A DNA stretch of 64,000 nucleotides from Pocillopora damicornis (Eukaryota). The DNA is taken from assembly GCF_003704095.1 (NCBI RefSeq), contig NW_020845755.1, forward strand, positions 1-64,000, written 5' to 3'. Under the pieces are notes generated by a model that worked only from the letters and a program-made list of their open reading frames with translations, was not told where the DNA came from and searched no databases. Positions 18,101 to 58,792 of the stretch are shown in pieces. Made by a program: the position numbers and the translations under genes. How positions within the stretch are numbered: position 1 is the stretch's first letter; every line of letters starts with the position of its first letter.

Positions 18101-21100
18101 AGAAGATGGCAAGCCAATGTCTTGTTGAATAATAACTATCTCATAACTGATACTATCAAACGCCTTGCTCGTCTTAAAGAGAACAACAGCTGTTGTTCCC
18201 TTATGGTCCAACGCATTAAGAATACAATCAGACGTAAACAAGAGAGAAGTCTCGGTCGAATGCCAATGGCCCGGTAAATACATTGTAAGAAACCACTCGC
18301 TGTGATCGACCTGTTCTTGGAGGCATAGCTGATGAAAGTCCGAAGTCGAAAGAAAGGTAAAGTCTCGCGAAAGGTCATCCTCTCATACATGCACAAATAC
18401 CGCCGTCGATCTTTCCATGGCCGCGATCCAGGCGCTATAAATCATAGCGTGGAATTTCAACCTCAACGTCCAGAACAAGCAGCCTAACCAGGTTTTCGAA
18501 GCCGTAAAGGTTTTAAAAACATTTTTTGCCTCAAAGTTTTTGATTGAGATGAAATTTCTCAGTTCCTCAGGAAAGCGCGCGTTCAAGTGAGTGATCTCTG
18601 CTCTTAGAAAATTATCGGCGAAATTGTTTAGTTGACTTCCTAACTTGTGTTAACCGTGGACCAAGCTTCTAGCAAGATAGCCACAACGCTTCAAAGAAAT
18701 TTGAGGGATTTGGCTGAAACAGGGTTTCTAACCCAGAACTTAAGTTTTTTAGTTTAGTTTTGTCCTCTTTTGGAGAAGATAAAGCGACAAGGATAGGGAA
18801 TAAAGCCGAAAAAGTCAAAGCGAATCAAGACGCGAGCGCAATTTACCTGTGTAGGTTTATATGGCTTATGATCAATCGATTGAATCACGGATTTAATCGA
18901 AGACTGAGGTATCTTATCTAGAGAGCACGAAGTAAACTCCTCGTGAAATAATATTATAGCGATCTCCAGCATTGTCGACATGGACTCATGCAATGTCATC
19001 AGTTCATTTACTAACTATTTCAAGTCCCGGTATTTGAAAAGACTACCCAATTTGATCTGGTGACTTATACTTTACAAAAATCCTCATCACCAATGCCCTA
19101 ACCTTCATGGGGGTTAATGTACATTTATCCATTGACTTGCCATAAGTGTAAAATTGCTTCACAGAGGAGATCGATGGCACTCTCGGTTGGTGAATGAGAG
19201 TTTTAGTGAAGAAATGTAAAATGGTTTCCGTGTTTACATAGCCTGATGTAAACACGCGGGAGGTTGGGAGAACACGAGATAAGCGTAGGAAACCACGACG
19301 CGAATCGGAGTGGTTTCCAGCTATCGAGCCCTAACCTCCCAAGTGTTTACATCAGGCTATGTAAAACCGGAAACTATTTTACATTTCTTTTATAAAATAA
19401 CTAATGAAAGAGGAATGAAAACCGTATTTTCATATGCTCATGTAAAATGGTTTTATGGCCAATCAGAGCGCGCGTACTATTTGAATTATTTCATAAAAGG
19501 GGTTCTAAATGGAATTGATTTTATTTCGTTCTCTGCAAGATATGTTGAATTTAACAAAAGTGACTTCTGTTCCTCTGTGTCACGGACAACTAAAGAGCAA
19601 AATTTATCCTATTGACGCATGTTTGCTGTCTCTAACGTAAATTAGAAAGAGGTTGCCCTTGCTTAAAACACTTACCGAGGAAATTTTCTGTTGTAAAATG
19701 GAATTTGAAGTATTCCGGCTGGAAAAACTGCCGAAAAAATGAGAGGGCAAACATAAATAGGATACAAATCAACTATTTATTCTAAAGCATCTCAGCGATC
19801 CATATCCCAATCCGTTTTTGCTAAGTATCCCTTGTTCTAGATATAAAAGTTATAGTTTGAACAAGACCCAAAGGACAAGAGAGGAGGTAAGATCAAGTTA
19901 CATACATTTGCATTGTTAAACATAGCCTGAAAATTAAAATTTCCCTCAATCAATGAGTTAACGGAATGGTTTTTTTTTTTACATATTTATAGCTTGTGTA
20001 GCCTACAGACGGAGATATGTCAGTCTGGTGGATCTAAACCTTGTACATTGTAAGTACTTACTTTTAATTTGACTGGATTAAGATGACGCCTTTGAAAATA
20101 TTTATTACATAACCTGAGTTGTGTTACAAGGATTTCCAGCTCTGAGAAAAGCTATAACTGCGCACGCGTAAAATTGAGATAATTTTTTACCTGCGTTCGA
20201 TATCGGTAATCAGCTGTTGATGTAACTCGCCTTTCGCGCCCCTCTGTCAGGTTATTAGTGAATAGCAAAGTGTTTACCATTCTCACTGCTAGGTCTTTTG
20301 TCGAAATTTCTCGGATTATGGCTGCTAATAATACTGAAAGATTCTTATCGCTCATAGAAATTACAAACCCCTTCACGTTTTCTTATAGTTTATGCTTCAC
20401 GAGTTTAAAGAAAACTCTCATTCATAGCATCTCGCAGAAACAACCGAGGATGCGTCAATAGCTCGTTCAATAACAACTTTCTGTCCGAAACAAACCTCTC
20501 ATCGGGAAACCGTTTAACATCATAGTAATCTTACATCTACGTAGGCTACACCTTTCGTCACTACCTAAAACTGAGCTACTCCGAAGGACAAAAAAAAATT
20601 GAAAGCAAAAACAAAATTTACACACGGATACACACAAACATTACGAGAGAAAAAGACGAGGTTGGTCTGGGTCGTTAACAAATGTCTTATGGAGTCCTGG
20701 AGAAATTTTGCTAAAATAGGGCAAGATTTTAAAGGGTTTGGCTTTCCCAAGGTGTACCCTCTGAATTCAATTTTGTCGCGGGGCTGTTCGATTTTAAGGC
20801 TTTTTCCAGGAATCCATATGCGACCTCTTTGGTATTTCCAGTTGCACCATGCAGGTTGAGAGATCTTTCATTGAGATTTTCCGTTCCAAATAAGCCTCTA
20901 TATTCATCAACTGCTTCTTAAATACAAGTAAATCGTTTTCCAGTTTCCCTTTATCGCATTGCATATCTTTATCAATCTCTTTAACAGTCTTACCAAACTT
21001 TTGCGTCTTGATCTATAAGGTGCTGATTTCTGAATCTATTCTGTATACTGTCTTCCTGATGTTAGCTATTTCCCATTGGATCCCATTGATTTATATCTCT

Positions 21101-24100
21101 AGAATGTCCACCTTTACTGTCTTTTTTGAGAATTTCTATAACCTTTCTACCAGGAGCTTCCCTGATGTTAGGAGCCTTAATTACTTCATCATTCTTAGCT
21201 CTCGATCGGTTTTCGTCAGGAGAATTTTTTCAATCTGTGGATGATGACGATGACTGTCTATTCTTTCTCATTTGCATGTAAATAATTCGTTAGGTGGTGC
21301 AAAAAGCGAGAATAATGCTGGAGCTGAGCGAATAACTTTCACTGCTCCACCACACTAGTCTCAGTCTCCTCAAATTGTACTACTTGTGTATCGTATTGAG
21401 AGTCGTCGCATTATGGACGAATTTGAACGATGCTGGGATTTCTCTATATTAGTAATCTATTAAACCAACAAGGAAACATTTTTAAAGTTTATTTTTTTTT
21501 TGCAGAAATGTCAAGTCAGATGTTTTGGCGGAATCATCTCGATTCTCTTCTAGGACATTCAAGGTGAAAAAAGTTTGCATAACGGAATTTTTAACCGTCA
21601 CGGTAGAATGAAAGGTCGGTGGTGATTGGTTACTTCAATCTGTCGATAACGTTAATCATTTTTGAGAGGTACTGTGTGTTTGTTGTTTCAATGTCGGGTA
21701 TGAGTCATTTCTATGGAGACGGGAATTAATATATTATCTCTCAAAAGGAATTTGTTCCCAGCTAATAAGACAGCAGTTTAAGATTGTTTGTTGAAAGTAG
21801 ATCGTGCTGCAGGTTATCTGTAATTTCCTATGTTGTAACATTTCCTAGAGTCTCGTCGCTCATTTTTGCGCATTAGGGCTTTGATTAAGGCTTCTGATAG
21901 CTGTCTAGATGTATGAGATTAGGGAATCGGACTTGCCTTAATCTTCATTACTTGAAAATTAGTTACTTGTATTTACTTGACGTTTCTGCAGATGATTATT
22001 CTCATGTACTTACTGATTTTGTTGGTCACTCTGTCGTAGAAGGCATTGACCGTATGTGGGTGAATCATCCACCTAAATTAGAATAAATTGGAGAAATTGT
22101 GACTTCATCATTAAACAGGGAATTGGCTGGGGTTTCGCATAGCGAATAGCAGGCGAAGTAAAAATTTAACATTTTAGCTGTGATTATATATTAACGCTTG
22201 CTATGTGAAAAAGTTTTCAGCTTTCAAATCCTGGCGAAAAGAAAAATCCCGATGTATTTTCAAGTAAGTTACGCAGGATCTAATAGATTATAAATAAGAG
22301 ACGTTCTTTCCGAAACATTTTCCCGAATCTCCCCGAATTTTTTCTGTACGCGAATTTTTTTCCAAACTAGAGTAATGTAATTGGCCCTTACCTTTCTTTG
22401 TCTACAACATTACGAAGATCCTTTAACATTGTCTTCATAGAAAAAGTTCGGATGCTAATCACATTGTTGAAGTAAGAGGAATTATCCATTGTTAGCTGAA
22501 ACAAAACAAGAAAAAATTAATTTTGTTATTATGAAATTACTAAAAATAATCAAGTTCAATGAGGTAATCACGGTCAATTTACAGTTCCACATGTATAAAG
22601 TACCGTTAAATTTGTAATTTGTAAACAACATATCTTTATGTTTATTTAATCAAACTTTTACGGAAGTCTATGCATGTCGGGACACAGCCAATACACAAAC
22701 GTTGTATAGTATATTTGGTAGATTCAATCCATGCATGAAGGGTACAAAGTTTTTAAGGCCTCAGTTTGATGTAATCATTTTAATTATATCAAGAGACGAT
22801 ATCGATAATGGGGAACATAAAGCAAACACCACCAAAATCGTCCAAAATCTAATGATCAGGGGGTTGTTCAATATACTCGCATTATAACGTTTGTGTAAGC
22901 AACATTACGGTCCGTATAGTTATTACGGACCATTAACGTGACAGTCGTCGCTACCTTAAGCGTGGTATACGGTCCGTGAGTTACAATTAATTAATAGAAT
23001 AGAGGAAGTTCATGCTGAAAAAGTGGCTACGTACGGTTTGCCAATTCATTAGTGGATACGTGTTTTTTTCGTTCCATATTAATTGTGTTCGTCGGAATCG
23101 ACCGTAACATTCTTCAAAGGTCCGTCAAGAGCTAACTACTGTCTCTAAATTGCAGTTTTGGGAATATTTCCATGAACGCGTTTTTGTTCGTCAAACAACA
23201 AGTCCTTTTTTGTCACTCATGGATGCGAAGGAAAAAGATATGCAATCAACAAAAGGTCGAAAGTTGTGTGTCAAGTGGTCTTTGCATTCTTTTGGTAACA
23301 GTTTTTCCAACAGTCAGCAGCTGAAGCGCCGATTTGTTATTTTTTTCCATGCTATTGATGCCGACGTGTGCGTATGTTTCTCATTCTGATTCAAGATGAG
23401 ACCTCTCTTTCAGTGGGTCCTCTATCTTAATTCCGAGAAATTTAAGAAGCAAAAACAACGCATTCAAGTAAGAAAAAAATTGAAATATTTCAGTGTATTT
23501 ATTAGTTTTTCTATGGGTTGTGTGGTTCTTTTCAACAAATCCCTTTTAATTCTATCTTGTCACCAGTCCATTTCATTATATAGTCGCATGAAATGCATTT
23601 CGCTGGAAGGTAAGCATTTTGTGAGTGTTTGTGTTTTACATTTTCGGGTATTATCGGCATCCTACCGCTAGCTTGATTATAACATTACGCTCGAAAAGGA
23701 AAAGATCGTTTGGAGGAAATAATAAGCTGTTACCAAAAGTAAAGACCACTGAAGCTTAAGAAATTTCTTATTCAATCTCTTTAACTACATACGCATTCAT
23801 ACCACCATTTTAAAGGGACTACACAGGTCACTACTAACCTAAAGGTTGGGGGAACATCTATAAAAATAAAATAATCTTGTCTGATGTTTTTGGGGTAAGC
23901 ACTGGATGCACCTCTATCCCTGTTCAGCCCACATTACTCGCTCAAATGTTTTAAGAGCATGAATTTGTTGCTGGGGTTATAAAAGAATGCATATGCTGCT
24001 TCAGAGATGTGGTATAGAGAAAAGGAATATAAACCAGGCTATTTTGGAATATGATAAATGCCTGGCGTTAGACAAGGAAAAGGGCCGTTTTGAGTATCAC

Positions 24101-27100
24101 TCGACCTTACAATATCAAGAAAAATGTGAACCACGGTCACGGTGGTATGTTCAAGACTTAAAGTATTCTTTCATTCGTATCTACAATTTAAGCTTTTTTT
24201 TTCGTCACAGGTGCCTCCTAGTGGGGTAGGAGCGGTATTTAAATCGGGGATATTTGAACGAATTTGAACACGTTGAATTGAAACACTACATTTACTACCT
24301 GAAAAATTTGGCTGTCACACGCAACAATGAGCGATAACACTATTTCAGCCGACACTTTGAACAAACGTGAGCCAGTAATTCAAGGACAGATGGCTTAGTG
24401 ATGTTCGTCAACCTGGCTGGGAAAATCTTTTTGCAGTTTCTGAATCTTTAAGGAATCTAAGGGAACCTAAATAGAAGCTGGAGAGATGATACCCGACATA
24501 GGCCTAACTACTCCACACATCTCGCATCAACTCCAATACTACAGTAGTTAGAAATAGATTTGTATGTATATACACCCATTAGCGTTACTCCTGTTTTGTC
24601 AACTGATAACAAGTAAGGTTGATTGTTTGGTTAGGAAAGGGGTAGATGCGCAGTTGTTCACATACTGATAGTGATCCAAATGAATTAATTACGTGAGGCT
24701 CACCTATACATGTAAATCGAAGTTTGACTTCATTTCCCCATTCCTTCTTACCACCGACCAGGAAAACTGGCCAGCATCGCGCACGCATTTTTCATATGAC
24801 TCCTTCGTTTTTGAATGATGATAACGTAGAATCTCAATCACATTTCAACTTACTGGTAAGTACCATTTCGTTTTGTAAGTAACGTAAATTTTGTTGTCAC
24901 GCGTAAAGAACAATGGATACTTTACATATACACTCTCAACTTGATTAGCGATTGTAGCTTTTGAAGTAATGTGTCTTTTGTCTTCATCTGTTTGTTTACT
25001 TGAATTTGTGAGTAACCCAAGCAACGGGTGCACTCCGATTGCGTTGGATTATGGTAGCGTTGTTTTCAATATGTCGGTGAAGGCGGCAGATATCGGCAGA
25101 TTTTGACCGAACCTTCCGTAGAAGTTCGACCGTTCATTGTTCTTTCACTGAATACTGATACTGAATTTGTATAATTTTTTTTTACGTATTTATCGCGTAT
25201 TCAGTGGTTCTCAAGGACAAACGCAATCACTGTTTTGTAGTATGTAACTTGAGACCGGTTTTCGAGAAGGTCTGATTTGATGTTCATCGTAGTTTGAAGC
25301 CTTTCAAACGTTGGAATGGCAGCTTTGATCCTTCTTTAAAAGCCCTGACTAAATGAGAGCGCAGATTAGTAATCGAAGAAAAGGAAACAGACAATGAATC
25401 CCGTTTACATTCTACGCTACCTCGCTGCCGCCATGCACAAAAAATGTTCCCCCGACCGCGACAGAATGCAAATGACTAACCTTTTGTGTTACGACCATAA
25501 TGCAACGTAATCAGAGTGCGCACACCGCCTGTGGGTAACCTGTTTAAAAACTGTGGTACGTAACATATAATTCTTGTGTCGTTTGCCTACTTAATGAGCA
25601 TTCTTAGCGCTGCTTATTTGCGTGGCCTGTGGTTCCATGTTTAACGAACGAGGCATAGACTCTCTATTCTTATAAGTTCTCTGATTGGCTTGTTCTCCAC
25701 ATTGATACCATTTACTTTGTGGTGTTTACAAAGTGCATCAACCATGCTAAAGCCGAACACATATTAATTTGCTATTTCAATATGTCACTGACAAATGTTA
25801 ACGAGCTATTCTCAGTTTTACGCTAATGAAACAAGGTGTTCACATAATTATTTGCTTGAAGTTGTCTTGTAATAGGAAAAAAAGAACAAATGCGCACGAA
25901 ACTGAACACTGTTTGATGTGTCAAGAAATACACGATCCATACGCGCCGCAACCAAGGTTATCTGGAACTGACGATCCGGTCCGCAACAGTTTGACAGTGT
26001 AACCGAAGTCATGCGTAATTCTGCTCATCATTTATTAAAAAAAATCGACATCTCTAAATTACTAAACGTGAGTAGGAAAATACATGTTGAAGAACGAAAA
26101 CTTACATATAAACTCACCACGAAGAAAAACATTAACCTTAAGTAGTTACAAAAAGCGGATTCTGGAGCATCGTCAAATGCCACAAGTCACACCCCTCTTT
26201 ATTTAACTGCTGTATCACAGATCAACGAATTCATTAGATAAAAACCTAGGTTTCTGACACATTTTGAATTTCACAAGCCACCTCCTGTAAAACGCAAAGT
26301 AATTAACACACGCAACTGCCACACTTGCATGCTTCTTGATAGTTTAATACGACAGGATCTGCATCGATATTGTATCTTCCTATGAAGAAGTCGTGTTGTG
26401 CCTTGATTTTTTCTTCTGTCAAAACAGTGTCTATGTAAATGAAAACAGTCTGACAGTCTGAGTTTAAACCTTCATGATAAACACCCTCATCATCATCATG
26501 TTATAAAAATTTCCCCATACAAATTGTTTATTAGAATTTACTATTTTTGCATTCAAGTTGGTAAGCTTTTTCCATTACATCGGAAAGAAGGAGCATAACT
26601 CACATCATTTCGACTTTGTCCGTTCCAATGACAGCTGACACGATTCACCAGGATTGATCAGGTCAATTGAAAAACTTATTTTAATTCATACTCTGTTAAT
26701 CATCATGATCAACGAATTCCTTCGGGAGGTAGTTCAGTTCCAGCAGTAACTATCAAGAGCTCTTCTCTAACGAAACCACGCTTTGGTCCATCCTTCAGGT
26801 AATAGAGAACAGTTTCATTCTTATTCACAATTTTTCTCTCCATACCGTAGACCTTCAGAGACGACACTGGATCTGTAGTTCGCCTTTGACTACCTTCCAA
26901 CTCACCAGTTGCATCGAGGAATCTCACATTCTTTGAAGAGTCTCTTTTCCTTCAAGCCAACCGGTTTTGAATAAGTAATCGAACTCTCCGCGTTCACCAA
27001 CTTCTTCCGTCAACCACCTTTGATTGCGTCAACAGGATTTTTTCCCGTCAACCTGGTCACTTCTCCCATTCAGTGGATCTCTTTGATGAGGATGTGTCCC

Positions 27101-30100
27101 CTGATCCCTGTGAACGTTTACATTCCCTCTTCTTCTCCTCAATCAATACTTTGCCATCTCTCTTGTAACTTCAGCCATGATTTCACACCGAAAATCAACT
27201 TGAAGAACACTGGTCCATCTCAGTGGTCCTTGCCTATAAACTGTCTTAAAAGTTCTTGAGACCTCAGAGGAGTCCTTTGAGGTGAGAGGTTCAGCAGACT
27301 TGGATCTGCTTGCAACTTTTCTAAAACTTTTAATGCATACTTATAGACTTTCCTTCCTCTCGGGAGTCTTTCATGGGGAAGGAAAATGAGATCAGCTTGA
27401 TGAACTACATTTGGGGATTACACATGAAAAGTAGGTCTTGGTATATGTTTCAGGGTACGCAAGTCAATCTGCCAGATGGCTTGCTTCATCAGCCAAAGCT
27501 TTCCAACGTCCTCAGACACTCGAGCTTCTTTTGTCAACTTCTTAAACTTAGACAATCCCTTCCATAAACTTTTTGGAGCTATCATTAATTCGTGAAAGTT
27601 TTTTCCATGGACTCCCCAAAATGACTGACATCCAATCCTATGGTCAAAGCACCAGCAACGACGTATTTTCACCTTGCTTTTGCGAGGTACTCGGCCTATA
27701 AGGGTCGGAAAACTGTGCTTCCCTCAGACCGACCTCTTGATTATGCGCCTTGTTGTACAGCTTCAAAGCTTAATCTGTATCCGCAAAATTCTGCATTGCC
27801 TGATCCTTGACTTGGTTATAAACCGCAATCCAATCGAGTAGTTTTGTTTATTCTCTTCATACTTAAAAGTCGCTGGATATTTCTTCTTCTCCTCTTCAAC
27901 ACTATTCTGATCTTCACTTAAATACCTTGCCAGATAGCTTCCGCCAACATCACATAATTCATGAGATTAGAACTCGGATCAGAAGTCATCGATTCCTTGG
28001 TGACTTTCGCAATCCATCCGATTCCAGAAGCCGATCCAGGCAAGGTCGCTGAATGATTAAATGTTTTTACAAGCCTATTATCAGACATTTTTTTGGCAGA
28101 CAAAACAAAATCAATCCACTGGTTTTACTCCAACAGGAATCTGTGGTTGTGTTGGTTGAGGCTGTGGTTTTGGTTTGTTAACGAGAGCCATCACCTCTCT
28201 CCTTTTATAGCAGAGTGCAACCCGTGAAAGAACAATGCTTGCAACTAAAAGTATTTGAGTTAGTGAGAATAATGATAACGTTTCAGCTTTCTTCTCAATG
28301 TGTTGTTCAGAATCAGCGTTATTTTCTCTAACACGTAAGCTATGCTTCTTTGCTTCTCTCACTCTTCACCTTTTGTGCTACTGGTAATTTTTCAGTCTTA
28401 AGTTCTTTTCCATCCATTTTATTTTTCAATGCATAATTTTCAAGTACTTACTCAAGTACTTAGCAAAGTACTCGCTCAATTTCTTATCGAGTCATGATAA
28501 GAACTTAATCAGCTTCTTCAGAAAGACCGGTCCTACTCAAAATCAACATTACTAGCAGTGAGAAGGACGGCACTTGTGATCGCCTTGTATATTCCATACT
28601 TCAGACTCAGTCTTACGGCAATCATTCCAATTTCTCTTGACCACGAAATTCAAATCTATCGGAAGCTTTCTTTCATCAAGGGGGAGGAGACTTGACGATG
28701 CCTTACATGATTGCTCGAGAAAAGTGTTAACGATAGCTTCACAAGTGTTTTTTTAGAGAAAGGTCTCGTACCTTTTGAAGTATTTCAACATCTTTTTCGG
28801 GAAGCCCTTGACTTGATCCTTGGTGAGAGGTATGTCAATCATTTCCTTCGCTTTACCACTTGTGACGAGAATTGTAAGCTGCTCTCGATGATCCGAATCA
28901 CTTGTGGGTTCGGCCTCTGGAATTTTGGAATTCATTTTACCAGAATTATCTCCTTACAATGTCAGTCAAGACTTTTTATTCTATTCTCAAATCCTTTGGT
29001 GCAGTAAGTTAATATCCTCAATTCCCAGTTGAAGGGCTGGAATGTTAATAGATGTAATTTTGCAGCGCTATTTGAGATGCCAAAATTATTGTAAGAGTGT
29101 AAAGAACCATTTGGTTCAAAAGGCTTTGTGTGCACTTAATTTTTAAACTATACCAGAGAACTCTAAAATGTGTGGTGGTTGGTTTGTTTTAACCATTCCC
29201 TGATTAATTCTTCTGGAACTTTTCATTAAGCCATAAGAAATCTGGCTTTGAGACAAATTGTTATGAAATAAATGTTGATCGAGACATTTTTTAAGTGCAT
29301 AATATTGTTATAATATTAAAATTTTCCCATAAATTATAAAGCTGAATTTATAAAGAGTTGCTGTACCTGTCTCGTCATGACATTTAACCAATTAATGGTG
29401 GCGGTAAATTAGTGAGTGCTGCACAAACAATAACCATGTCATCCAGTGTGTCCTTAAGAGTCAGAGGCACCACAGACTGGAAAAGTCGGAATCGTTTCAG
29501 ATGCTGGATGGCACGCTCAACATGAATCCTAGCTTTTGCAATTGCCCAACCTTGAAGAACGTTTACCTTTGTTAATTGTTCCTGACCTTTGGTAAATGGA
29601 GGCATATAAAGTTTTACTTGCTTTGTTAAAAGAAAACCCTGTACATTGAAACCACAGTCAACCATACAAGCTGAGTTGGAAGAGAATTTTGAGATCACAC
29701 CAGAATCAGAAAATATAAATCTATCAGATGACACGCCTCCATAGCCTTTTGACACAAATGAAACAATTCCAGCTGAGAGTGATGGACACTTTATATAAAT
29801 AAAAACATGAACAATGAATGAATTAATACTTGAACATTATTTCTTATCGCATGGTTTTAAGTTATGGTTTAAATACTTTAAAAAATTCTTTAAAAAATTC
29901 ATGTTAAGGCAGACATGGTTTAAATGATCTTACCAAGTATTTGGATGTGTTATGGCTCTTGTAACTAGAGTATATCAGTGCCTGTGCCTCTGCTACAGAG
30001 GGTTTGTGAACATATATTGCTGTACAATCAGTGATTGGAAAAGCCCTAGGAAATGGTTTAAAGGCTTCCGGGTAGAACTTTGTTACATTTCCTGGCTTGG

Positions 30101-33100
30101 CCATTTGATCAAACCTTGAAATTCTCTTGATAAGAAGGGAATCCAAGTTGATGAAATTGTGGACTCATTACTTGCTGAAGTCGTAAATCTGTAGGCTAAG
30201 TCTTCCTCTGACAAATTTGTTTAATTGTTTACTTTCTTTTTCTTCCAGGCTTACATTTACCCAAGTCGTTTTGATACCCTTTAATGCTTGTGACCTTTTT
30301 CTTTTGAAATATTGCAACTTTTGCACTTTGAGTTTTGTCTTTGACACAAGAAACTGAAACACTCCATAATTTAGGAATATGTTTCAACAAGATGTTTAGT
30401 TTTTTGATGTCTTTTAGATCAAAAGCGTGTTCTTTCATTTCCTCAATTGTGGCTTTGTCTGCTTTAGTTGTTACTGTATATCAGACACACTTTTCTGAAG
30501 TACTAGACACAAAGGGCAACGAGGATCAAGTTCCTGTTCGCCTTGAGAACTTTCGTGTCCGTGAATGCCAACTGGCAGAGCAAAAGTATGATCTTCGGTT
30601 GCAGGATTAGTAGAAATGTTTTCAGTGGCCCTTTGCTCTGTCTTTGAAGACTGGCTTTTGTTCTGCTGGATTTTAAAAGTAGTGCTATCGTCCATATGGA
30701 TTTCAAAAGGAGCATCATTGTTAACATTATATTCCACATGTTAGAATTGTTAACATCCCCAGGCGGTGCTGTTTTGTTCGTTGCTTTTTCGGCTTCAATC
30801 ACAGTTTCACCACCACTTCCTATTCTCCCCTTTGCCACATTTTCAGTGACATTCGATTTCTGCTTGAATGCGTTGGAGCTACTTTTCATCTCATCGGTCA
30901 CAGGTCGATTACACTTGTAGCGACCTTTTTGGCCAGAACTCTTCTTTTTCCCTTTCAGGTCAGAAATCCTGAGTTGACTGTGTATCCGTTTAGAAATAGT
31001 ACTGGATTAGGATGATCTTCCGTGGGCCGGCCGTCTTAAAATGGTTCGAACAAATACAAGGACTTTCTTTTGCATCTGTTCGTCCAATAATTTTTTTTTC
31101 CAGATGGGTTTCCTTCTTTTTTCTTGACATTTAAAAACGTGAATTTTATCCACGTGATCCTTTTTTACGCACCTTGAAGACATGAGAATTTATTCAGCAA
31201 CTTATTATGGACTCCAGCACAAACTTGCTGGGCAGTTTAACTGAAAATATAAATAAAAATATGTATAAAAGAATTTCCTTAAATTTTCGTAGCTTCTTGG
31301 GTATCTGCGGTCACTGTCACAACCCCTTACTGAGCAATGATCTCCTCACCCATTTTTTAAGCAAAAACGGTTTACAAGCAAACACTTTTGAGTCAATTGG
31401 GAAGGTTTATTTCGCTCTGTGCCTCACCCAACAATAGAAACGATCGAAAACTCACGGACACTGATGCCCCATGAGTGACTTGGTACTGGCTCGGCCAATC
31501 CCAGCATTCAGTTGGACGCCAGTATTAGCAAAGTCGCATTTTCCTTCTGCTCATCTCTCGTCCACTCATCCACATAATTCTCGAATGTGATCTTCATGTC
31601 TTTTGCTGAGGGTGTATACAAGAGAACTAATGCAGCATACATAAACCAGCATACCGGAAGAGATACAGTTGTGAAACGGCACTACTAGCATTGACGGAAG
31701 ACTGGAAAANNNNNNNNNNNNNNNNNNNNNNNNNNNNNNNNNNNNNNNNNNNNNNNNNNNNNNNNNNNNNNNNNNNNNNNNNNNNNNNNNNNNNNNNNNN
31801 NNNNNNNNNCCCTAATAATATCAAGAACCTGTTTGTTATTAATAACAACAAATATAATTTAAGGAACAATGATTTCATTATCCCTAGAGTTAGTACTACG
31901 CGCTATGGTAAGCACTCTTATAGGTACTTAGGTCCAGTAATCTGGTCTAAGTTAGATGGAAAAATAAGAGCACCAAGAACGCTGCAAGAATTTAAAAACG
32001 CTTTACACAAAGTAGATATACAAAGTTTAATCTCTTCGAATAATTGCAAGAACTGTATTTTATGTAAATCTTAAATATTTTAAATATTATCAAGATCATA
32101 TTATTGTAATTATTATTATCTTATATTATATAATACAGGGTAGGGTATTATAAACATGGGGTCTACTATTTCGGGGTAGGGTAGTTTTATATGGGAAGAG
32201 CTCTTTTATCATATTCCAATAAATTTTTAATGCATAATTTATATAGATTAGATTAGTTTAGTTTAGGTGTCCTTACTTAGTGGGAAACTGCTATCTTATT
32301 TGACACGTAAATAAAGTTTATTATTATTATTATTATTATTAATGCAGCGGTCTTCTCTCTGAATGGTTTTTCGATTCTTGTCGTTTGCTGTGTGATTCCC
32401 CGAACACTGATCCTAATGTGTCTTGCGCTGAATGCTAAATTCACGAGCTCATTCGTCCTCTGCTTCACGTTTCTCAAAGCAGCGCATTCATCGAGAATGA
32501 TCAGTATATTTGTTCCCTCATACGGATAAATATGGATAACTGCTATTCTTAAGACTATCTGGTCTTGAAGTGGAGTCAAGATAAGTAAGTCCTTATCATT
32601 TTCTCCAAAACCATCATTTGTAATGTTTTGAATGAATGTCGGGCAAATCAAGAATATGTGATGAAACTTTCCTCGGAGGGTACTGCTCAAGATATTTACC
32701 AGGTATCTCGTCTTTCCTGAATTTGTTGGTTCTACCATTAATGTATTGAATGGACTATTGTCAGTAGTCATATTTTATAGTGGGCACGAGCAAAAGTTCT
32801 TCTCTTCCCTTATTACCCTCTTATCATCATTTGAACTCAAGGCTATCTTGTTGATGGTCTCAGTGAAGACTTCATGCTTAAGTGATCTTATTGCAATTAT
32901 ATTCCTTATTTGAATCTTTCCTCCGCTGAATAAGCACTCCTAGTAGTATTCATGACTAATAATCTTCGTTACTAGAGCCTTCTTAACCCCTTTACACTTT
33001 CTCTCCACTTTTCCCTCAAGAATCTTGATGCTGTAAAGTTCTGCTCTCAATCCAACGAACTATTCAATGATCCTACCACCAGCTTCATTTTTCATCATGG

Positions 33101-36100
33101 CCACAACCTTCTTGTTGCAGCCAGTTAAGATCCCTGACATGTGATCTTTGTGGTAGTTGCTTGTGTCGAATTTATCTTCAACATCACCGCCTTTATCCTT
33201 GAAGAAGTATTCAGTTTCAATCTCATACACGAGAGTGTCTGTGTCTGTAAAGAGAAGCTTTGCTCGATCTTCATATTTTGGTTTGGTACAGTTATAATAG
33301 AAGTCACACATCAGTGTCTTGCTGATTGTCGAGGACGCTCATTCCACAGTAGACCGGCTTATCAAATACAAGTTTTGTCTCCCTCGAGTGTTGTGTAATG
33401 TTTGAAGTTTGGTTTTGCTGTAAAGTTTTCGTGCCATCGAACGATTGTTGACTAATCTCACATCTTCTCAATTCCTGATGCTTTCCATAATTTTCTGAAG
33501 CGGAATCTTAATAGATAAGGGATCTGACACAATCATCAATGAAACAGTAAATGCCCCAAGGCGATCACTGAAGGGACTTCTTCTCCTCTACAAGCCACAC
33601 ACAATAGGAGCAAGAGACAGTGAGAAGACATTCAATCCCGACATCACTGAGGTAAAGGTGGTTGTGAATGGAATACCGAATAAGGTTTTACAGTCGAGGG
33701 TATATGTGTGAGGGGTCTTTTAGAAGATTTTGGAAAGAAAACAGCGCAATGAATGCAACAGACGTTTATGCTGAAGAGTGATGTGCTCTATTTGTCTTGG
33801 AAGTATGAGGGACAACGATCTTTACGGTTCAGGATTGAGATCGGTGGATACGAAGAAACTGAAGGAGTTCAGCTCTCAATTAACAGGAAGGCATCGGGTT
33901 TAGGGAATGTGAAATGTCACGTCTTTATCTTCGCAGAGGCTCAGCTGCACATCATCAACCAAGAGCTTGAGAGTGTGATCTACTAAATGCTTCTCATTTA
34001 AAATCAAGGCACACCACGATTCCTTCATAAGAAGATACAACATTGATGTAGATCCTGTTGTATGAAACCGTCAGGAAGCATGCAAGAGTGACAGTAGCGT
34101 GTGTCAATTACTTTGAATTTCACAGGACGAACCACTTGCCATAATTACGTAACGTTACGTAATGGTACAAAGATCAACCACGAGTACACATTGCAACTAA
34201 TAAAACGTACAAACACTTACAGGTAAATTAAAACCTTAACGCAATACACACAGAAAACGGTATGACAATAAGTTTCACGATTACAGGCAGTATAAGACAT
34301 GACTGAGACTAGGAATTTCATGATTTCTATTCCTTCCCTCAAAAGATCTTTAACCCATCAAGAAAACTTGCTATTCATTTTGTGTCGTTCGTAACACGCA
34401 AATCCGCTACACTTTTTTGACGGAGACTAGTTAACAGTACAAAGGAAGACGTCTTGTTGTTGTAATTTCTCGTTTCGTCTTTAACGGAGACTTCTTCAGG
34501 GAATGATTACAACTAACAATGGAAAGCATATAAACGCATTCTTGTGCCTAAGTTTATCTTCCCATGGAAGAGAATAATATCTGATATCTGAAACATGCTG
34601 TGAAATGACGTTACAAGAAACTAAGAAGTAAAAGTAGCAACAATGGCAATGTCGTTGTGATAACAGCACTGCAACGAGATAAATAAAGAAACACAAGTTT
34701 TATTGAATTAGATGGAAGTGAATCCAAGTGCTGCGTGAAGGTCGATGCATACGAAATATTCATTTACCCATTGGGCGAAGTGGGTCACATGGCAATGCTG
34801 CACTTAAACTAAAGACGTTTTTGTCTATTAAAATCCCTATTTGAGATTATATTGAATCAGATGACTTCTCGGCGAAAAATCATCGTGCCTCGTGATACAG
34901 CTGATTCTTTCGCCAAAAATCGCTTTTGGTTTGCTAAAGGAATTACTCTACATCAACCAAACTCTAGAGCACTGAGCAAGGGGAACCTTTGCCGCACTAA
35001 GCACGAAGGAATGAAATGTTATGGCAACAGAAACGAACACACTACCCACTCTTAACATAGATTTCGCCATAGAAAACAAAACACAAACGCAAAAAACTAA
35101 ATATTCTGTAACGGGAGTTTTTTGTTCTAGTATTGACCTGAAAACCGCAGGCGAGAAACCGCCTTTGTCAGTCTTTGTCGAAATCTTCTTTGATGCACGC
35201 GGTTCTCCTTTGTAAGGCTGAACCGTACTCGCAACTTCCATTTCTTCTGTGTCACTTGAGTACGATGTATCACATCTCTCGTTAGAGCTTGCTGAAGGTA
35301 AGTATAGATCGCTATCGGTCATAATTTCAAGAGTATTTCAACACTTATTGATACAAAATTACATGAAATGCGAGAGATTTGTAAGTATCAACTGAGAGTT
35401 TTCACAGTTTTCACCCGCTAATTCGTTATAAGTCCACGGGACACTTTTAAGACAAAATAAGGACACTTTAGGGCCCGAAAAACCGTGTTTTGGGCTTTTT
35501 GAATTTTTTCTTCTATCGGAATTGGTTTGTACATGTGATAAGCTAAATATTTACGCAAAAAAAAAACATTCGTGTCATAGGCACTTAAATTCAAATGTTT
35601 TTGCCTGCGGTTGTATTTTGGGAACCATACGATTAGCGCTGATACGATAAGAATTTTGCCGGCTGATAGTAGCTCATGGTGACGCAAAATAAAGAAAGCA
35701 AAAAACGGTAGGTGACATATGAAGTGGGACGGAATCCCAATCTAGGAGCTGTATTAATTGACGTGGAGCTGTATTCATTGACGTGTCATGTCAGTGCCAT
35801 CTGTAAGTCCTCTTCTTGCAATAAACCAGCTCTCAAAGAGCTTTACTCCATGTTGGGGAGCATGATATGTTTGAATTACTTCTTATTACCTATGAAGTGT
35901 AGGCACCTAGCTATATTTCAAGTATGATTTATCAGTGCAGGCCCACTACACAACCTAGATCATCTTCTACAAACCGTCTTCAGGTAGCGAAATGCTAAAC
36001 TGAAACTTATTCGGACATAGCCTTTAGTTTAGCCGCTCCATCCTTATGGAAATCTTTGCCAAGGACCATTAGCGCTTCGAGATTTTTGAATGAATTTAAA

Positions 36101-39100
36101 CGGAACCTGAACTCATAATTTTAGGTTAGCTCTCTGCTAACTTTAACAGTTGTTCAGTTTTCTTAAGTTCTACTCTAGAGATCTATGAAATATGTAATAT
36201 TATAGAACTTAAGTCGGTTAGATATTTTTCTCTTTCATATATATGGTAAAGCGCAATAAGTGCTTTACAGATTGTATATGGGCGTGAGTGTTTTACAGAG
36301 ATCTAAAACACTCTTCACATGTACCTTGACCAACGGGCGTTGTTATGTGAACCTTTTTATAATTTGGGCACCGGCTATTTTGTTTATATAATATCCAGTA
36401 TTTGTATAAAAGCCAGCATTTGAATTTCTACCACATACATTTATTGTCCATGTGATAAAAAGAAAATTACATGTTAGCTCCAAGTTATGTATTTTATGTT
36501 CTCGTGATACGAATTATATCTCACTCGCAAATAAAACTCATATCTTCTCACCATCAAGTAATATCCTCTCTATACTTACGTCCTTGAATCTCTCTGATAG
36601 CTTTCGTTTATCTTTCATGTATTCTGGGTACCCAATGTTGTGTCTGATTGCAGAAGCCTGAGGGTGATAACATGAAGGTTTATTTATGTGTAATGAACAA
36701 CGTATTAATGATTATGTAGTGAATTCGTTTCAGGAAAAGCCCAAAGTGAGTTCTTGCCGAATTGACTAAACGATAGCAAGTTCATTACCACTGGGCAGAC
36801 GATTAAGAAACCATGGTTCACCTAAATCCCTTGGCTTGTTGTTTGTCAAAGATTACTATCCAGAAAATCAAATTTCTTGATTTAAAATGAAGGTTGAGCC
36901 AGGAATCAGACAACTCTAAGACATCATTCAGGTTGGTACAAAGTATCACCTTCAGCATTATGCTTTTTATGAATAGAGGACCCGATTCGAGACCTAACAA
37001 ATGTAAAATATCTTTACCAGCTAGATGTATAATATCAGAAACTGAATTTGAGATGTTCTCTGTAAGCTTAACAGTTCCGCAGCATTTGTCACCATTTTGA
37101 AACTTGATTCTATTTTTGATATTTCATTGTGTTAAATACGGATGTTTCTTATTGCTGTAGAACACTATAATCATTAACATTACGACGACATCGATGAATG
37201 AAAGAAATCTTGAAAGCGACTTTTTACGCAATAGCAGCTCGACTCGATAACAACTCTTACTGCTTTGCAAACCTTAGAGAAGAAACAATTCTCATTAATT
37301 TGGGGATTCCATAAGGGTCGCCATTGAAATGCATCCGGGAATATCTGGGTATATTATAAGAATAGAAAACGAAATTTTAACAACCATTGCCGAGAAAAGA
37401 TACATTAAATAAGAACCTTGAATGTGTTTAAAAGCAATGAGGAATTATATAAAGTCATGTAAATTTCTTAAAAAAAGCACTGGCAGTGGATGGAAGTCTT
37501 TCGTCGCAGCGTTTATAGATGTACCTTTTCTCTGGCATAAGCCCTTGTTTTGTTGTCCATCCAGTCAAGTTTGTCGAGGTTAGCGATGAACGTTTCCCTC
37601 AAATCATCGATCATGGCCATTACCTGAAATAGTTAAATCATTACAAGAAATAGCAAAGATTTATTTACTTGAAAAAGGCAAAGCAAACTTCTTGTTTACT
37701 TGATGGCATTAACTTAAAAATTTCAAAAATTTTGCTGAATATATATCTGATACTAAGTGACGTCGGGCCTATTCAAACAGTAAGTCATAGGCAGATTAAT
37801 TTTGGATGAATCGGAAAGTACTTAGCTTTGAGTGTATAAGGGAACTGGTTGGAGGTATTAACCCCCACTGAAATGTTGTCGTCTTTGTAACACAGAATAA
37901 AAAGGTAAAATCAAGCCGTCCTAAAAAATTGTTCATAGGATTAAATGAGAGCATTTTTTCTGAAATTTTTATACTCGTTCTCTTTAATGAAACCAGCGAT
38001 TTTAACCAGTTCAAAGTATTGAAGTATTGTTCAGAACTTTCAAACTTTTCAACACAAAACTATGAAAATTTCTGGCCGTGAATTCCAGTAAATAACGATT
38101 CAAGAATGTTTAATTTACTACGTACATGCAAGAAATTCGTTCCTTGATCGCTTCTGAGTAGAACATTTACAATTCTTTGAATAAGCTTTGGTCTCGAAAT
38201 ATTCCTTAGTCGTTTTCTCCTTGTCATTTAAACATAGTTTACGGGAGGGACACGATTACCTGGTTAACCCGACACAGTAGTAACAAACTCTTTCTTTACG
38301 AGCACAACTTGTGTCTGCATACTATGTAATAAAATAATTGTTTCAAGCCTTAATGTGCGTATGTCAAGTTATGGATGCACTTGGATAGCTCGAAGAGCAC
38401 TGAAAAAGCTAGAGGTTTTTTCGGCTGCGCCTCAAGCAAGTTTTGCATTTCTCTCGTGCTCTCCAGACTTCCTGCGTGCATATATAACCCGATATACGCA
38501 CGCTAAGTGTGGACTAATTCTTTGATGACTGGTCCGGAGCCGCTATTTTCGACGCACATGTAAATTATAACTAGTAAAAAAGAGACTGTCGAACAAAGCT
38601 CCCAAACTTACAAAGAAATAACAAATAAACGTGTTTAAACTCTCTTCACTGAAACAAGGCCCTCACCGACTCTTTATCTTTTTTTTCAAACTTCTCATCC
38701 AGGAAGATTACTCCCAGAGGATCTCCAATGTCATTGTCAAGGCGACTCATTTCCGTAATACATTTTTTCCAGATGTCTGTCTCGCCCGAGCTTCCCATAA
38801 CCACCCTGTGATAGTTGTAGAAAGCCCTACGGTATTCTTCACTAAGATGGGGAGCCAGCTGAACAACTACCTGCCACATCATGTAATTTGCAAGAACCCT
38901 GATAAAAGAATAGGAGAGAAATCATTGGAACTGTGTCCCAAATAATCGACTGTTTTAAATAAAAACTACGGTCAAACCTGTTTTAAGCGGCACCGTATTT
39001 AGCGGTCACCCTGTATCAAGCGGTCAGTTGCCAAAGCCACGATTTTTTTTGCATTGATCTCCGCAATTTTCACCTCTATTAAGCGGTCGCAATCACTCTT

Positions 39101-42100
39101 TGCTGAGTCCCAACGGCCCATTTTATTATTCTCCACCTGTATTGAGCGGTCAGAAAAACTAAGAATAATCCATGTGTCTCCCCCACAATCGAAGTTAGAA
39201 AAATTGTTCGAGCGAGTTTCAATTATAGCATCAAGTGGGATTGCTTAAAGCCACATATGTCGTCGAGATGGGCGAGTGTGCGTAACAATTGAATTCCAAT
39301 CTTGAGCCAATTTTCACCCGATGTTTTCCGGTGCTATCTATTGTATGTATTTGTGTACTTTAGAAAGTCGAAATTCGCACTCGCTACACAGTTGAGTTCT
39401 TTCCTTTTGTGATTTATGGCTTATAGACACTAGCATATTATGTTTTTAGTTCTTGCCGTGACACTACGGAAACAGCAGAAGACGATAAAGATCTCACAAT
39501 TATTTTCAGGATTGTGCACGTGCTGCTTAGAGGCAGAGAAAGGCCGCAGACTGCCATATGCTGCTTAGAAGGAATAGGGAAATGAAATTGTCTAGCGACT
39601 GGTTTGGATGCGTCTTTATCATCTTTCTTTAGGTTACGAAGCTGTTCTCGGAATCGGTTGCTTGGTCGTTTTCCTGTTTCGCCTATGTACATCTTTTTGC
39701 ACTGAGTACAAGTTACGCAATAAATAACATTGGTGGAAGTACAGGTTAAAACAATGATCACTGATCTTAACAGATTGCTTGGGTCCTGACCCAATATTTT
39801 CTGAACGTTTCGAATGAAAGGACGGAAAAGGTTTTTATGTTTTTGTTGTATTTGAATGAAATTAGCAGAGGTTAAATTGATTTAAAATTACTCCGAAACT
39901 GGTATAATATATTACATATTATACCAGTTTCGGAGTAATTTTAAAGCAATTTAAAGTTTTTTAAAAAATGATGGATTTTGCTGCTTTATTCGGTGAGAAT
40001 GAAATGCGAGGGTGAGAGTGAAATTCAATGATTTCTCTCTTTCTATGACGTTTGGCAGTGATGGCCATCTTGAACGAGAGAAGCAGAGTAGCCATTCTTT
40101 TGGAAAAACTGGCACATTGCTTCTGACTTTTTAGAAAAATCAGAGTCCTCAGTATATAGGCGACGAAGTCAAAGAAACTGAGAATAAGAAATGAATTCTT
40201 GTCATGTGATGGATGTGAAGATGAACACAACAGTTATCCATAGGAATCATTAGCATTGTAGCACACACTGTTGAATAGGCCGTTGCCTTCGAAAGAAAGT
40301 TTGATGACTAGAAATTGGGAGCGACGGTGAAAAGGAATGGTTTTAATGTCCATAGTGTCCCATTCCTAATGCTTTGGTGGAAGCATTCTAATCAAAAGGT
40401 ATCGCCACATCTATGAGGGTAAAATCCTCGATTCTTTTGCGTTTGATAACAGTGCGTAGACGATTTGCTGTTATTTCTCTGTCTCTCTGGATCGTAATCG
40501 TACCACTTATTAGCAGTGTCTACATCAAAAAGAGTACCAACTATTTGAAAATTGTATTCAACCGTCATTAAAACTAGGCTATGACGCCCCATTCTGAAAT
40601 ACCTCAGAGGCGTTGCCCTTACACTCATCAACTAGTAAAAGCCACAACGTGCGATTCACAAAGAACTGCTGCTTTGGTTATCACTAATTCATTTCTGGAC
40701 CCAAGAATGCCTATTTTTTTTCATCTCTGAATTGTACAAACAAATCACCAACAGAGAAAAAAGCGAGAAACTACTAGATCGTAAGTTAGCGACCCATTTA
40801 GTAGATTTGCAGTAAATTTTTGAACGGTTAGGTAGCTTTTTGAAATCTCAAAACATGGTATGTTTCGCAACTTAATGTACACTTAATAAATGCCTGAGAT
40901 GAACTGCACGATGATATTTTGATGATATTGAACTTGTTCTTAGTAATCAGCATAGGAACTGAGTTAAAGATTTCCTCCAGCGAGCGTTAACTTCTTCAAC
41001 TGAATACAACTAGCAGCAGGTAGATGGGCAAGATATAAATGATGTTGAAAGATGTTTGCAATGGTCGGCAGCCGGGTGGCGACGCAGATGACGTGATAGT
41101 ACTCAAAGTGCTTCAACTTTTATTAAGTCTATCAAATTGAATATGGTTAATTGATTACTCAATGTTACCAACCTTTCTGGTGTGTTGGTTATCAAACTTG
41201 ACATGTTTGTCAAGTAATCCAAAGCAAAAATGGCGAGCTCTTCGTCTTGCTCTATTTCGTAGCTGGTGTCTTGAAACATTGCTTTTATGTAAAACAACCA
41301 GTCAATCTACGAGTATAGAAATAGCGGATTACACACGTGTAAGTATATATTTTTCAGTAACTTGTATTGTACCAATTTGTATCGATGTTGTATGCTTTTA
41401 ACTTTAAAGACAAATCGCTCTAAATTATTGGTATTCTTCATGAGAACTCTCCAAAACCACTTTAACTGAGTATTCATTGTTTTAAACACAAAACTCAGAA
41501 AGAAATTCCTTCTGAAGATTATTTACTTAACTTTTATTTAAGATAGTTTTACCCTTGAGAATTGACCAAATGCAAAGAAATTGTGATGAGAAATGGTATT
41601 AAATGGGTAGGCAGATCCTGTTTATAGCTACTGAGCCTAGTGAAATAACCCCTGCAAGGGAACTATTCAAATTTATTCTGAGAGTGAAACTGCTGCTCAA
41701 GGAAAATGCTTTTCGGTTCTGAAGACTTTCTTTTGCACTAGTAAATTGTGCACAACACGACTCCCGTTATTACAGACTCTCGCTATTAAGGAAATGCAGA
41801 CACTTTCATGCCCCCTCCCCCAGCTCGAAATTTCATTTGTTTTTTCTCTCGCTATAACAGACACTTAAGTACTCGTCCAAAATCCTGACTCACATAATAT
41901 GAAGCAACATTATGATAAAGGAAACTAGTGACACCATTCTTCAATTGGATGCGAACTTGAAAATTTCCTGCTTGCGACCGGATCTGTTTGTGGCCACGGT
42001 ATAAAATTTATGTTTACGTAGTTACATTTTATTTCTTATGCATTAAGACGAAATGATTTTTTTCTCTCGTTTCCTGCTATTACGGAATCTCACTATTACG

Positions 42101-58208: not shown

Positions 58209-58488
58209 ATGCCGAACTGGGGGAAAAGACCCAACAACAATCAAAGTACTGACGTCACTACGTATCATTTGCGCTGAGCTTTATTCCCCAAATCTGTTTA
58301 GCGATTAACTAGACAAGTTCTCCTTAACTAAAGACAGTATTCTTACGCTAAAGTTGATCCATGTTCTGTCGGTGAGGCAGAGCCGAAGTTAATTAGAGTC
58401 GAGAGGTAGAGTCGAGGTTAATTAACCCACGAAGAAGAAGAATTAGCCGAACAACGAAATTACTAATGAACGTTGATTGCCGATCAGG

Positions 58489-58792
58489 ATGGAATCAGTG
58501 TATGTTAAGACGAAGAGAGAGACGCGCAGGCCAAACAGTAGAACAAGTTTTGTTTCGTGGAATGTGAAGGAAGCAAAGAAATGTTCAGCACTGGTTAAAT
58601 TTCTAATCCTCACTATCGCTCTACTGATAGTATGTTGCCTTGTCTTACTGAATCTGTACTTGAGGGAGCACGCACGAAATCTCACCGCTGAGGCTGTAGA
58701 GAAACCAGAGACAACAACTACAAGGATACCTGAACACGAAAAATATCATGGCGGTATGTGTTGGACAACAGACTGTCTACATGCGGTATCAG
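58489..58792 (+). CDS. M13 gene 2 exon 1 (start, TM anchor)
   Basis: ATG at 58489, hydrophobic anchor, CxxxxC stalk, donor GTAAGG, phase 1. Confidence 0.85.

Follow-up and report, generated by a model that had tools for sequence, protein, structure and literature searches.

How did a cluster of broken reading frames resembling virus genes come to lie within intron 10 of a metallopeptidase gene? We addressed this question in a window of 64,000 nucleotides, the whole stretch of DNA analysed, from the coral Pocillopora damicornis (contig NW_020845755.1; Table 1). The cluster is very probably a dead polintovirus copy of the Polinton/Maverick type, which integrated long ago and decayed in place. 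The host M13 gene has 18 GT-AG introns, no internal stops and the HEITH motif at aa 614. Its predicted product shows 7 differences from the protein P0004, on which Pfam M13_N and M13 were matched, and the gene is colinear with a 777-aa protein that spans the exon 10-11 junction. This confirmed the initial annotation, which had placed the element in a 14,084-bp intron 10 of an intact metallopeptidase gene; the intron runs from 36579 to 22496, and the host is a Pocillopora coral.

Table 1. Features of the locus, with positions in the window
Feature	Position	Strand	Remarks
Host M13 metallopeptidase gene (ECE/neprilysin-like)	6024..51492	-	19 exons, 777 aa, intact
Intron 10 of the M13 gene, holding the polintovirus copy	22496..36579	-	14,084 bp
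Left TIR, ~300 bp	26141..26440		opens with AGTAGT at position 26141; inner border placed approximately
Left arm of the 128-bp inverted repeat	26283..26410		pairwise comparison with the right arm
Putative short ORF-like stretch that extends into the TIR	26303..26500	-	7 homologues
rve-type integrase pseudogene (weakly supported), spread over several frames	26709..27723	-	sibling comparison
Three small ORFs, conserved in siblings (27918-28124, 28111-28365, 28678-28953)	27918..28953	-	weak Pfam match only, E 0.065
Nested PHIS-type (PIF/Harbinger/ISL2EU-like) DNA transposon relic	29008..31545	-	start approximate, within 28924-29090
Stretch skipped by the second allele, inside the nested transposon	30146..31456		1,311 bp; joint 30145-31457
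Packaging ATPase, C-terminal piece	31541..31637	-	colinear with 4 of 6 siblings tested and with L003
Nested 3' end, likely LINE	31638..32339	+	(ATT)n tail; 9-bp duplication TAATGCAGC; high repeat depth
Packaging ATPase (A32/FtsK-like), N-terminal 145 codons	32340..32774	-	Pox_A32 E 1e-10, above cut-off
pPolB C-terminal fragment, with stops and frameshift	32802..33494	-	aa 1019-1256 of a 1277-aa relative
Junction of the internal deletion, where the fragments of pPolB and capsid meet back to back	33495..33504		contigs cross it in 4 of 4 runs
Predicted major capsid protein, C-terminal fragment, broken	33505..33986	+	aa ~248-412 of a 411-412-aa protein
Right TIR remnant, beginning directly behind the capsid stop	33987..34127		outer ~142 bp absent in this haplotype

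Boundaries and coherence of the element

The 128-bp inverted repeats of ~85% identity reported in the initial annotation are real. The two arms (26283-26410 and 34000-34127) align over 128 nt at 85% identity (BLAST E 5e-34 for the genome) and differ by 14 transitions and 5 transversions, corresponding to a K2P of 0.17. They form, however, just the inner portion of a longer TIR. The left boundary previously set at 26283 was wrong: the true start lies at 26141, with AGTAGT, and this haplotype lacks the outer right end. The same end motif also opens sibling copies, and a search with an end-motif pattern, designed with the site at 26141 in view, found 7 places and 0 in the control. A second allele seems to retain a larger part of the right TIR. 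A hairpin seen at 26265-26300 is not a telomere but shared inner TIR sequence.

The gene order of the copy is TIR-integrase-small ORFs-ATPase-pPolB / capsid-TIR. Such an arrangement might be a chance mosaic, in which fragments of at least two copies came together within the intron or through misassembly, with the repeat being a dispersed one. An N gap lies inside the element, some sibling loci are composite (L002, L026), the TIR arms are 15% different and no listed contig spans the entire element, all of which would suit a mosaic. Nevertheless, positions 1-44 of the repeat query were matched by the two arms of the window only, the same divergent layout recurs at three sibling loci (L003, L029, L043), and contigs run across the left end in no fewer than 2 of 4 runs, and across the joint between pPolB and capsid in all 4. 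We consider a mosaic highly improbable. Many other loci also have the repeat together with integrase, pPolB or capsid; it is not the generic sequence unconnected to pPolB and integrase that the initial annotation had named as the outcome that would overturn its reading.

Viral genes retained in the copy

The packaging ATPase recognized previously by its Walker A and B motifs was confirmed by its Pox_A32 match; the motifs read EPTNSGKT (Walker A) and ILIILDE (Walker B). The integrase could be followed via siblings, while the frames in the window matched nothing themselves. In the sibling copy L012, the rve profile gave a match of E 5e-4 and 20.7 bits, which is under the curated cut-off of 32.6, and a second sibling (L007) gave E 0.064; the window integrase is 48-79% identical to these copies (48%, E 4e-30, to L012). 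This weakly suggests an integrase identity for the window frames. Pfam searches with the integrase, pPolB and capsid pieces of the window, as ORFs or read through with X, gave no match, and a PDB sequence search with the integrase piece returned one chance match only.

A pPolB with TDTDT is indeed present, but only as a C-terminal piece. This fragment, which carries LLFTDTDT, is 54% identical to the 1277-aa relative (P0136; E 4e-62) and represents 19% of the full protein; the pPolB matches of siblings cover aa ~125-1274. We took the motifs DTDS/T and LMNNxxFGK to be those of pPolB and labelled it on this assumption. The pPolB relatives had no Pfam polymerase match, P0136 had no PDB sequence match, and viral contigs searched with the pPolB piece contained 0 relatives. 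Similarly, the plus-strand ORF previously regarded as a probable capsid gene retains only the C-terminal 40% of the protein, with 51-63% identity to a full-length relative (P0017). The structure model of this relative (pLDDT 84.7, pTM 0.84) is a predicted double jelly-roll, in line with the fold that the initial annotation had proposed to look for, and Foldseek matched it to the PBCV-1 capsid (E 1.7e-16, TM 0.63) and the mavirus MCP (E 1.5e-11). Judged by this predicted fold, the plus-strand piece is a double jelly-roll capsid remnant.

No adenain-like protease was found in the window, and PF00770 gave 0 matches genome-wide in a search in which no positive control gave a signal. A minor capsid (penton) gene was likewise absent from the window, and the gene upstream of the sibling capsid had no usable Atlas or Pfam match. 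Metagenome contigs searched with a right-flank pattern gave 0 matches. The copy fits Polinton-Maverick in the broad sense, with TIRs, an AGT-AGT end, pPolB, a weakly matched integrase, A32 ATPase, a double jelly-roll capsid and, in siblings only, a short duplication. With its core genes broken and TIR arms that are not near-identical, it is not an active or intact element.

Internal deletion, nested insertions and alleles

The insertion would have taken place long ago, likely via the family's own rve integrase, and would have left a 5-bp duplication, to judge from sibling copies. Later, at this locus, a deletion would have removed no less than 3.8 kb coding for pPolB and capsid, and likely more than 5 kb if one counts the gene located upstream of the capsid in siblings; the nested insertions, too, would have come after integration. 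The host would tolerate the element because, as we propose, splicing removes the intron in its entirety, and no product would be made from the element today. As to its age relative to the alleles, the divergence between the TIR arms contrasts with the near-identical contigs of individuals.

The internal deletion is private to this locus, its junction being spanned by 0 of 38 other matches. This bears on the idea that the deletion came first and that a helper copy then mobilized the short, non-autonomous version, an idea in keeping with the retention of both ends and the integrase-ATPase side and with the many siblings that are likewise internally deleted. We regard this order of events as very unlikely, since besides the private junction there is no close sibling (best 80%) and the retained genes are broken. 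Decay in place of a once longer copy is the preferred reading.

Foreign nested DNA accounts for ~3.2 of the 8.0 kb of the element (~40%) and interrupts the ATPase region. Hence, the initial proposal that unrelated-looking pieces belong to one element is right for the viral genes, while some pieces are truly unrelated nested transposons. The likely LINE insert, a label that we presume from an RT-end motif, had no Pfam match and contains the N gap (100 N, 31710-31809). The nested DNA transposon matched DDE_Tnp_4 (E 1e-25 and 1e-5) and HTH_Tnp_4 (E 0.0025), and presumably has a THAP domain, for which there was no profile match. Its right end matches the TIR of a dispersed repeat, and the transposon is absent from colinear siblings. 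A left TIR proposed at 29008 was rejected (p 0.72). With these two domains it resembles the PHIS transposons, ISL2EU or PIF/Harbinger, in the passages drawn on from Han et al. (2015, PMC4482050), from which it differs in that a left TIR and a target duplication were looked for and not found.

The element was found in 4 of 4 DNA runs examined, and the contigs of other individuals mostly differed by 0-8 letters over 0.5-4.2 kb. The joint that skips part of the nested transposon occurred in 3 of 4 DNA runs at about half depth, indicating an indel polymorphism, and no empty allele was seen among the joints listed (15 of 62). Conceivably, part of the element, such as the ORF in the TIR or a capsid antisense transcript, serves the host as a domesticated or regulatory relic: of 24 runs listed, 14, from 5 studies, contained at least 0.85 of the element's words, and RNA runs had shares of 0.02-0.27, one of them 0.27. 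An old neutral insertion, however, likewise gives wide presence. Moreover, all hallmark genes are broken, indel polymorphisms occur within the element, and the TIR ORF lacks a codon-position signal (0.19/0.12/0.18 for the three positions in 37 ungapped copies; p 0.23, not significant). Such a relic is scarcely credible, and nothing points to a function or to an active virus. Common to many individuals and bearing nested insertions and two indel alleles, the locus could be used as a marker of relative age within Pocillopora.

The family and its insertion footprint

The copy is one of a resident, decayed multi-copy family and not a singular event. The genome-wide TIR search, suggested at the outset as a route to intact siblings, returned 37 other matches from a decayed family. 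There were 35 pPolB matches in the genome, none with an open frame longer than 311 aa, and a six-frame capsid search gave 93 matches on 31 contigs, the longest stop-free match being 182 aa. None of these 31 contigs held a full-length open capsid copy, in a fragmented assembly that could collapse young intact copies. The closest DNA relatives of the copy are 65-80% identical. The earlier interpretation as a Polinton/adintovirus-type fossil stands; its boundaries do not, and the copy is internally deleted.

Among sibling copies with both ends, 3 of 8 pairs showed a perfect 5-bp duplication (P ~2e-7) and 1 of 8 a 4/5 match, with no clear target duplication in the other 4. A perfect 6-bp duplication, as expected of a vertebrate-type Maverick, was found in 0 of the 8 pairs. 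This count left out unpaired termini as well as L041 and L042, because their second end is missing; for want of its right end, the duplication is also unreadable at the locus in the window. The family thus likely uses a 5-base, not a 6-base, insertion footprint, apart from which the copy is ordinary. Literature searches on target-duplication length and cnidarian Polintons brought up no report of 5-bp duplications in coral polintoviruses. Work on Mavericks from 2007 reportedly described target duplications of 5-6 bp. For PLVs, 5-6 bp are on record (PMC12220804).

Polintoviruses of stony corals were already described by Stephens et al. (2024, PMC11131425), and the present element is a further copy of that class. 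In the passages of that paper searched, MCP, ATPase and TIRs are reported for scleractinian genomes including Pocillopora, and this copy shares with those elements its endogenous state, capsid, ATPase, TIRs and paralogous expansion; the words 'target site' and 'intron' do not occur in these passages. The filters given there (10-50 kb, MCP+mCP+ATPase, 2% mismatch) would reject the present copy because of its 8 kb, 85% TIRs and broken genes. In contrast to the one element that these passages give for P. damicornis, our six-frame search detected relics of the capsid gene on 31 contigs. This shows that a coral genus for which few polintoviruses have been reported holds a sizeable fossil record missed by gene-call-based surveys. 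It is possible, though rather doubtful, that the family forms a distinct coral polintovirus lineage, with a 5-base integrase stagger, a TIR gene directly behind the capsid stop and maybe no adenain, which swept the genome in two layouts and then died out. If so, it is only in searches for intact elements that the species would look poor in polintoviruses.

Adintoviruses, according to passages of Starrett et al. (2021, PMC8502044), share with this family the rve integrase, FtsK-type ATPase, PolB and double jelly-roll capsid, and include degraded germline copies; they differ in their adenain and penton, which were not identified here. The Beta PolB class is stated there to lack a pfam03175 match, as do our three full-length pPolB relatives (PF03175), and this absent match offers a lead towards a Beta adintovirus placement. 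Compared with the vertebrate Mavericks in passages of Barreat and Katzourakis (2021, PMC8097293), in which 96% of copies are degraded fossils, the protease and minor capsid were not found here, whereas the (AGT)2 ends, two gene modules and mostly degraded state are alike. The 5-bp duplication provides a testable contrast to the 6 bp that define those elements.

Termini and target site of the element

The element in intron 10 is genuine but unremarkable, a fossil of an established type that goes beyond the textbook only in the 5-bp target duplication of its family, a putative ORF in the terminal inverted repeat (TIR) and the two layouts of that family. It was assigned to the Polinton class in the broad sense by its TIR, end motif, pPolB, ATPase, double jelly-roll capsid and, weakly, integrase. 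Searches for a protease and a minor capsid protein gave no usable match. Polintoviruses of stony corals and degraded germline adintoviruses are already described (PMC11131425 and PMC8502044, respectively); PMC11071308 and PMC2836005 contribute no decisive point to the comparison.

The inverted repeat reported in the initial annotation was recovered in a search of the genome (E 5e-34). The element, however, does not start at 26283 as had been proposed: the left terminus lies outside the 128-bp repeat, at 26141, and reads exactly AGTAGT, the end motif of Mavericks (PMC8097293). Siblings, other loci of the same family, reach far past the 128-bp repeat and terminate in AGTAG-type motifs, next to which stand a purine-rich run and TTCTGG. 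A terminus pattern, designed with the 26141 site already known, was found in seven places, and its reversed control in none. On the right, the element has no counterpart of the outer 142 bp, and the target duplication is therefore unreadable in this haplotype. In three of four sequencing runs a joint connected 26205 with 34126 on opposite strands, a contig passing there from the right flank into opposite-strand sequence resembling 26205-26277, and the record lengths imply ∼200 additional letters at 34126-34127. These joints and record lengths point to a likely second allele whose right TIR is longer. The TIR adjoins the capsid stop, and the integrase stop is ∼270 bp from the TIR. Immediately outside the truncated right end is a perfect palindrome, and high-copy repeats flank the element on both sides within intron 10.

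Among eight sibling pairs with both termini, counted after two candidates without a second end had been left out, the 5-bp flanking duplication was perfect in three (chance of at least three of eight, P ∼2e-7; 7e-7 over four registers). The remaining pairs matched at 4/5 positions (one pair), 3/5 (two) or 0-1 (two). None of the eight showed a perfect 6-bp duplication. A short target duplication, seen in the siblings, is thus shared with Polintons/Mavericks in the broad sense. Vertebrate Mavericks, in contrast, have a 6-bp duplication (PMC8097293), and the element is therefore not placed among them; for PLVs 5-6 bp is reported (PMC12220804).

Judging from Polintons generally, an rve integrase would have inserted a linear copy, replicated by pPolB, into the intron by its AGT ends; that linear copy would derive from a virion or another chromosomal copy. 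Deletion, nested insertions and point decay would have followed, and removal of the whole intron by splicing likely shields the element from selection.

Features of the element and its surroundings
Feature	Position	Strand	Remarks
Inverted repeat	26283-26410 / 34000-34127		128 nt, 85% identical
DDE_Tnp_4/HTH_Tnp_4 transposon relic	∼29.0-31.55 kb		nested; domain matches
LINE 3′ end (likely)	31638-32339		nested; ATT tail, 9-bp duplication
pPolB fragment		minus	aa 1019-1256 of 1277-aa relative
Capsid fragment		plus	aa ∼248-412
pPolB/capsid junction	33495-33504
Palindrome	34145-34164		20 bp
High-copy repeats	34400-35700, 24900-25700		depth up 15-80 fold
Host gene	51492 to 6024	minus	19 exons; 777 aa
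Intron 10	36579..22496		14,084 bp
Reverse-transcriptase-like and other sequence	43762-47711		intron 4
Exon-like ORFs	58477-58815, 61966-62313	minus
220-aa ORF	2091-2753	minus	adjoins N gap

Genes, nested insertions and internal deletion

The genes claimed between the repeat arms were largely borne out: we found an A32-type packaging ATPase (E 1e-10), a pPolB stretch carrying LLFTDTDT, and integrase-like frames. The plus-strand piece, proposed to encode the capsid, matches coral proteins of 411-412 aa. The fold predicted for a full-length relative (68 sequences; pLDDT 84.7), rather than for the broken window piece, resembles double jelly-roll capsids (PBCV-1: E 1.7e-16, TM 0.63; mavirus: E 1.5e-11). 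Integrase, ATPase and pPolB share the orientation of the host gene, and the capsid is antisense to it.

The element's own DNA makes up ∼4.75 kb of 7,987 bp. The nested transposon ends on the right in sequence matching a dispersed repeat's TIR; a search for the transposon's left end found none. The second insert we take to be a LINE. Siblings are colinear over both nested sites, with all six tested matching both outer sides and four of them also the 31541-31637 piece. The pPolB and capsid fragments abut back to back. The junction is crossed by contigs in all four runs and by 0 of 38 other matches; we therefore conclude that the deletion is genuine and confined to this locus. The missing coding sequence amounts to at least 3.8 kb, and likely to over 5 kb counting the sibling gene upstream of the capsid. 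CpG observed/expected was 0.53-0.79 in the parts of the element (26141-33986) versus 1.0-1.1 elsewhere in intron 10, a weak hint of past methylation.

Family, age and spread

The genome holds at least 37 other TIR matches, at least 35 pPolB matches (none with an open frame above 311 aa) and at least 93 capsid matches over 31 contigs, lower bounds on matches, which differ from copy numbers. No capsid match was both full-length and open. The closest DNA relatives among 60 loci fetched are 65-80% identical. In one family layout the capsid module points away from pPolB (L003, L029, L043, as in the window); in the other it lies on pPolB's own strand (L026, L044/L045, L046). Another TIR type (L001/L002, L006, L013, L016, L029) is distinct in its outer part and has at its end an inverted, internal copy of the terminus. 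More decayed copies lie on the window's own contig (C2390) at 85.0-86.0 kb and 159-174 kb (L026, L027), one apparently nested in another.

At least 0.85 of the stretch's words occurred in 14 of 24 listed runs (five studies, two organism labels), one of the 14 possibly being the source sample. Contigs from four runs, each from a different study, covered 30/30 bins in every run, mostly with 0-8 differences per 0.5-4.2 kb contig. A 1,311-bp stretch within the nested transposon was skipped at about half depth in three of the four; among the 15 of 62 joints listed, none skipped the whole element. Set against these few differences, the divergence of the TIR arms (K2P 0.17) shows that the insertion is far older than allelic variation.

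Host gene and surroundings

The host is indeed an intact metallopeptidase gene with the long intron annotated; its coding sequence is free of internal stops, its 18 introns are of GT-AG type, and one exon matches Pocillopora endothelin-converting-enzyme-like proteins at 100% identity. The public model of the gene (P0002) joins host exons to the intron-4 sequence and ends after exon 9, a fusion that is likely a mis-annotation; the reverse-transcriptase-like part is presumably a LINE. The exon-like ORFs resemble an M13 peptidase start (TM segment; DPCTDFYQYACGGW), which suggests, by sequence likeness, a neighbouring M13 paralogue. The 220-aa ORF looks like the C terminus of an integrase, probably from a BEL/Pao retrotransposon.
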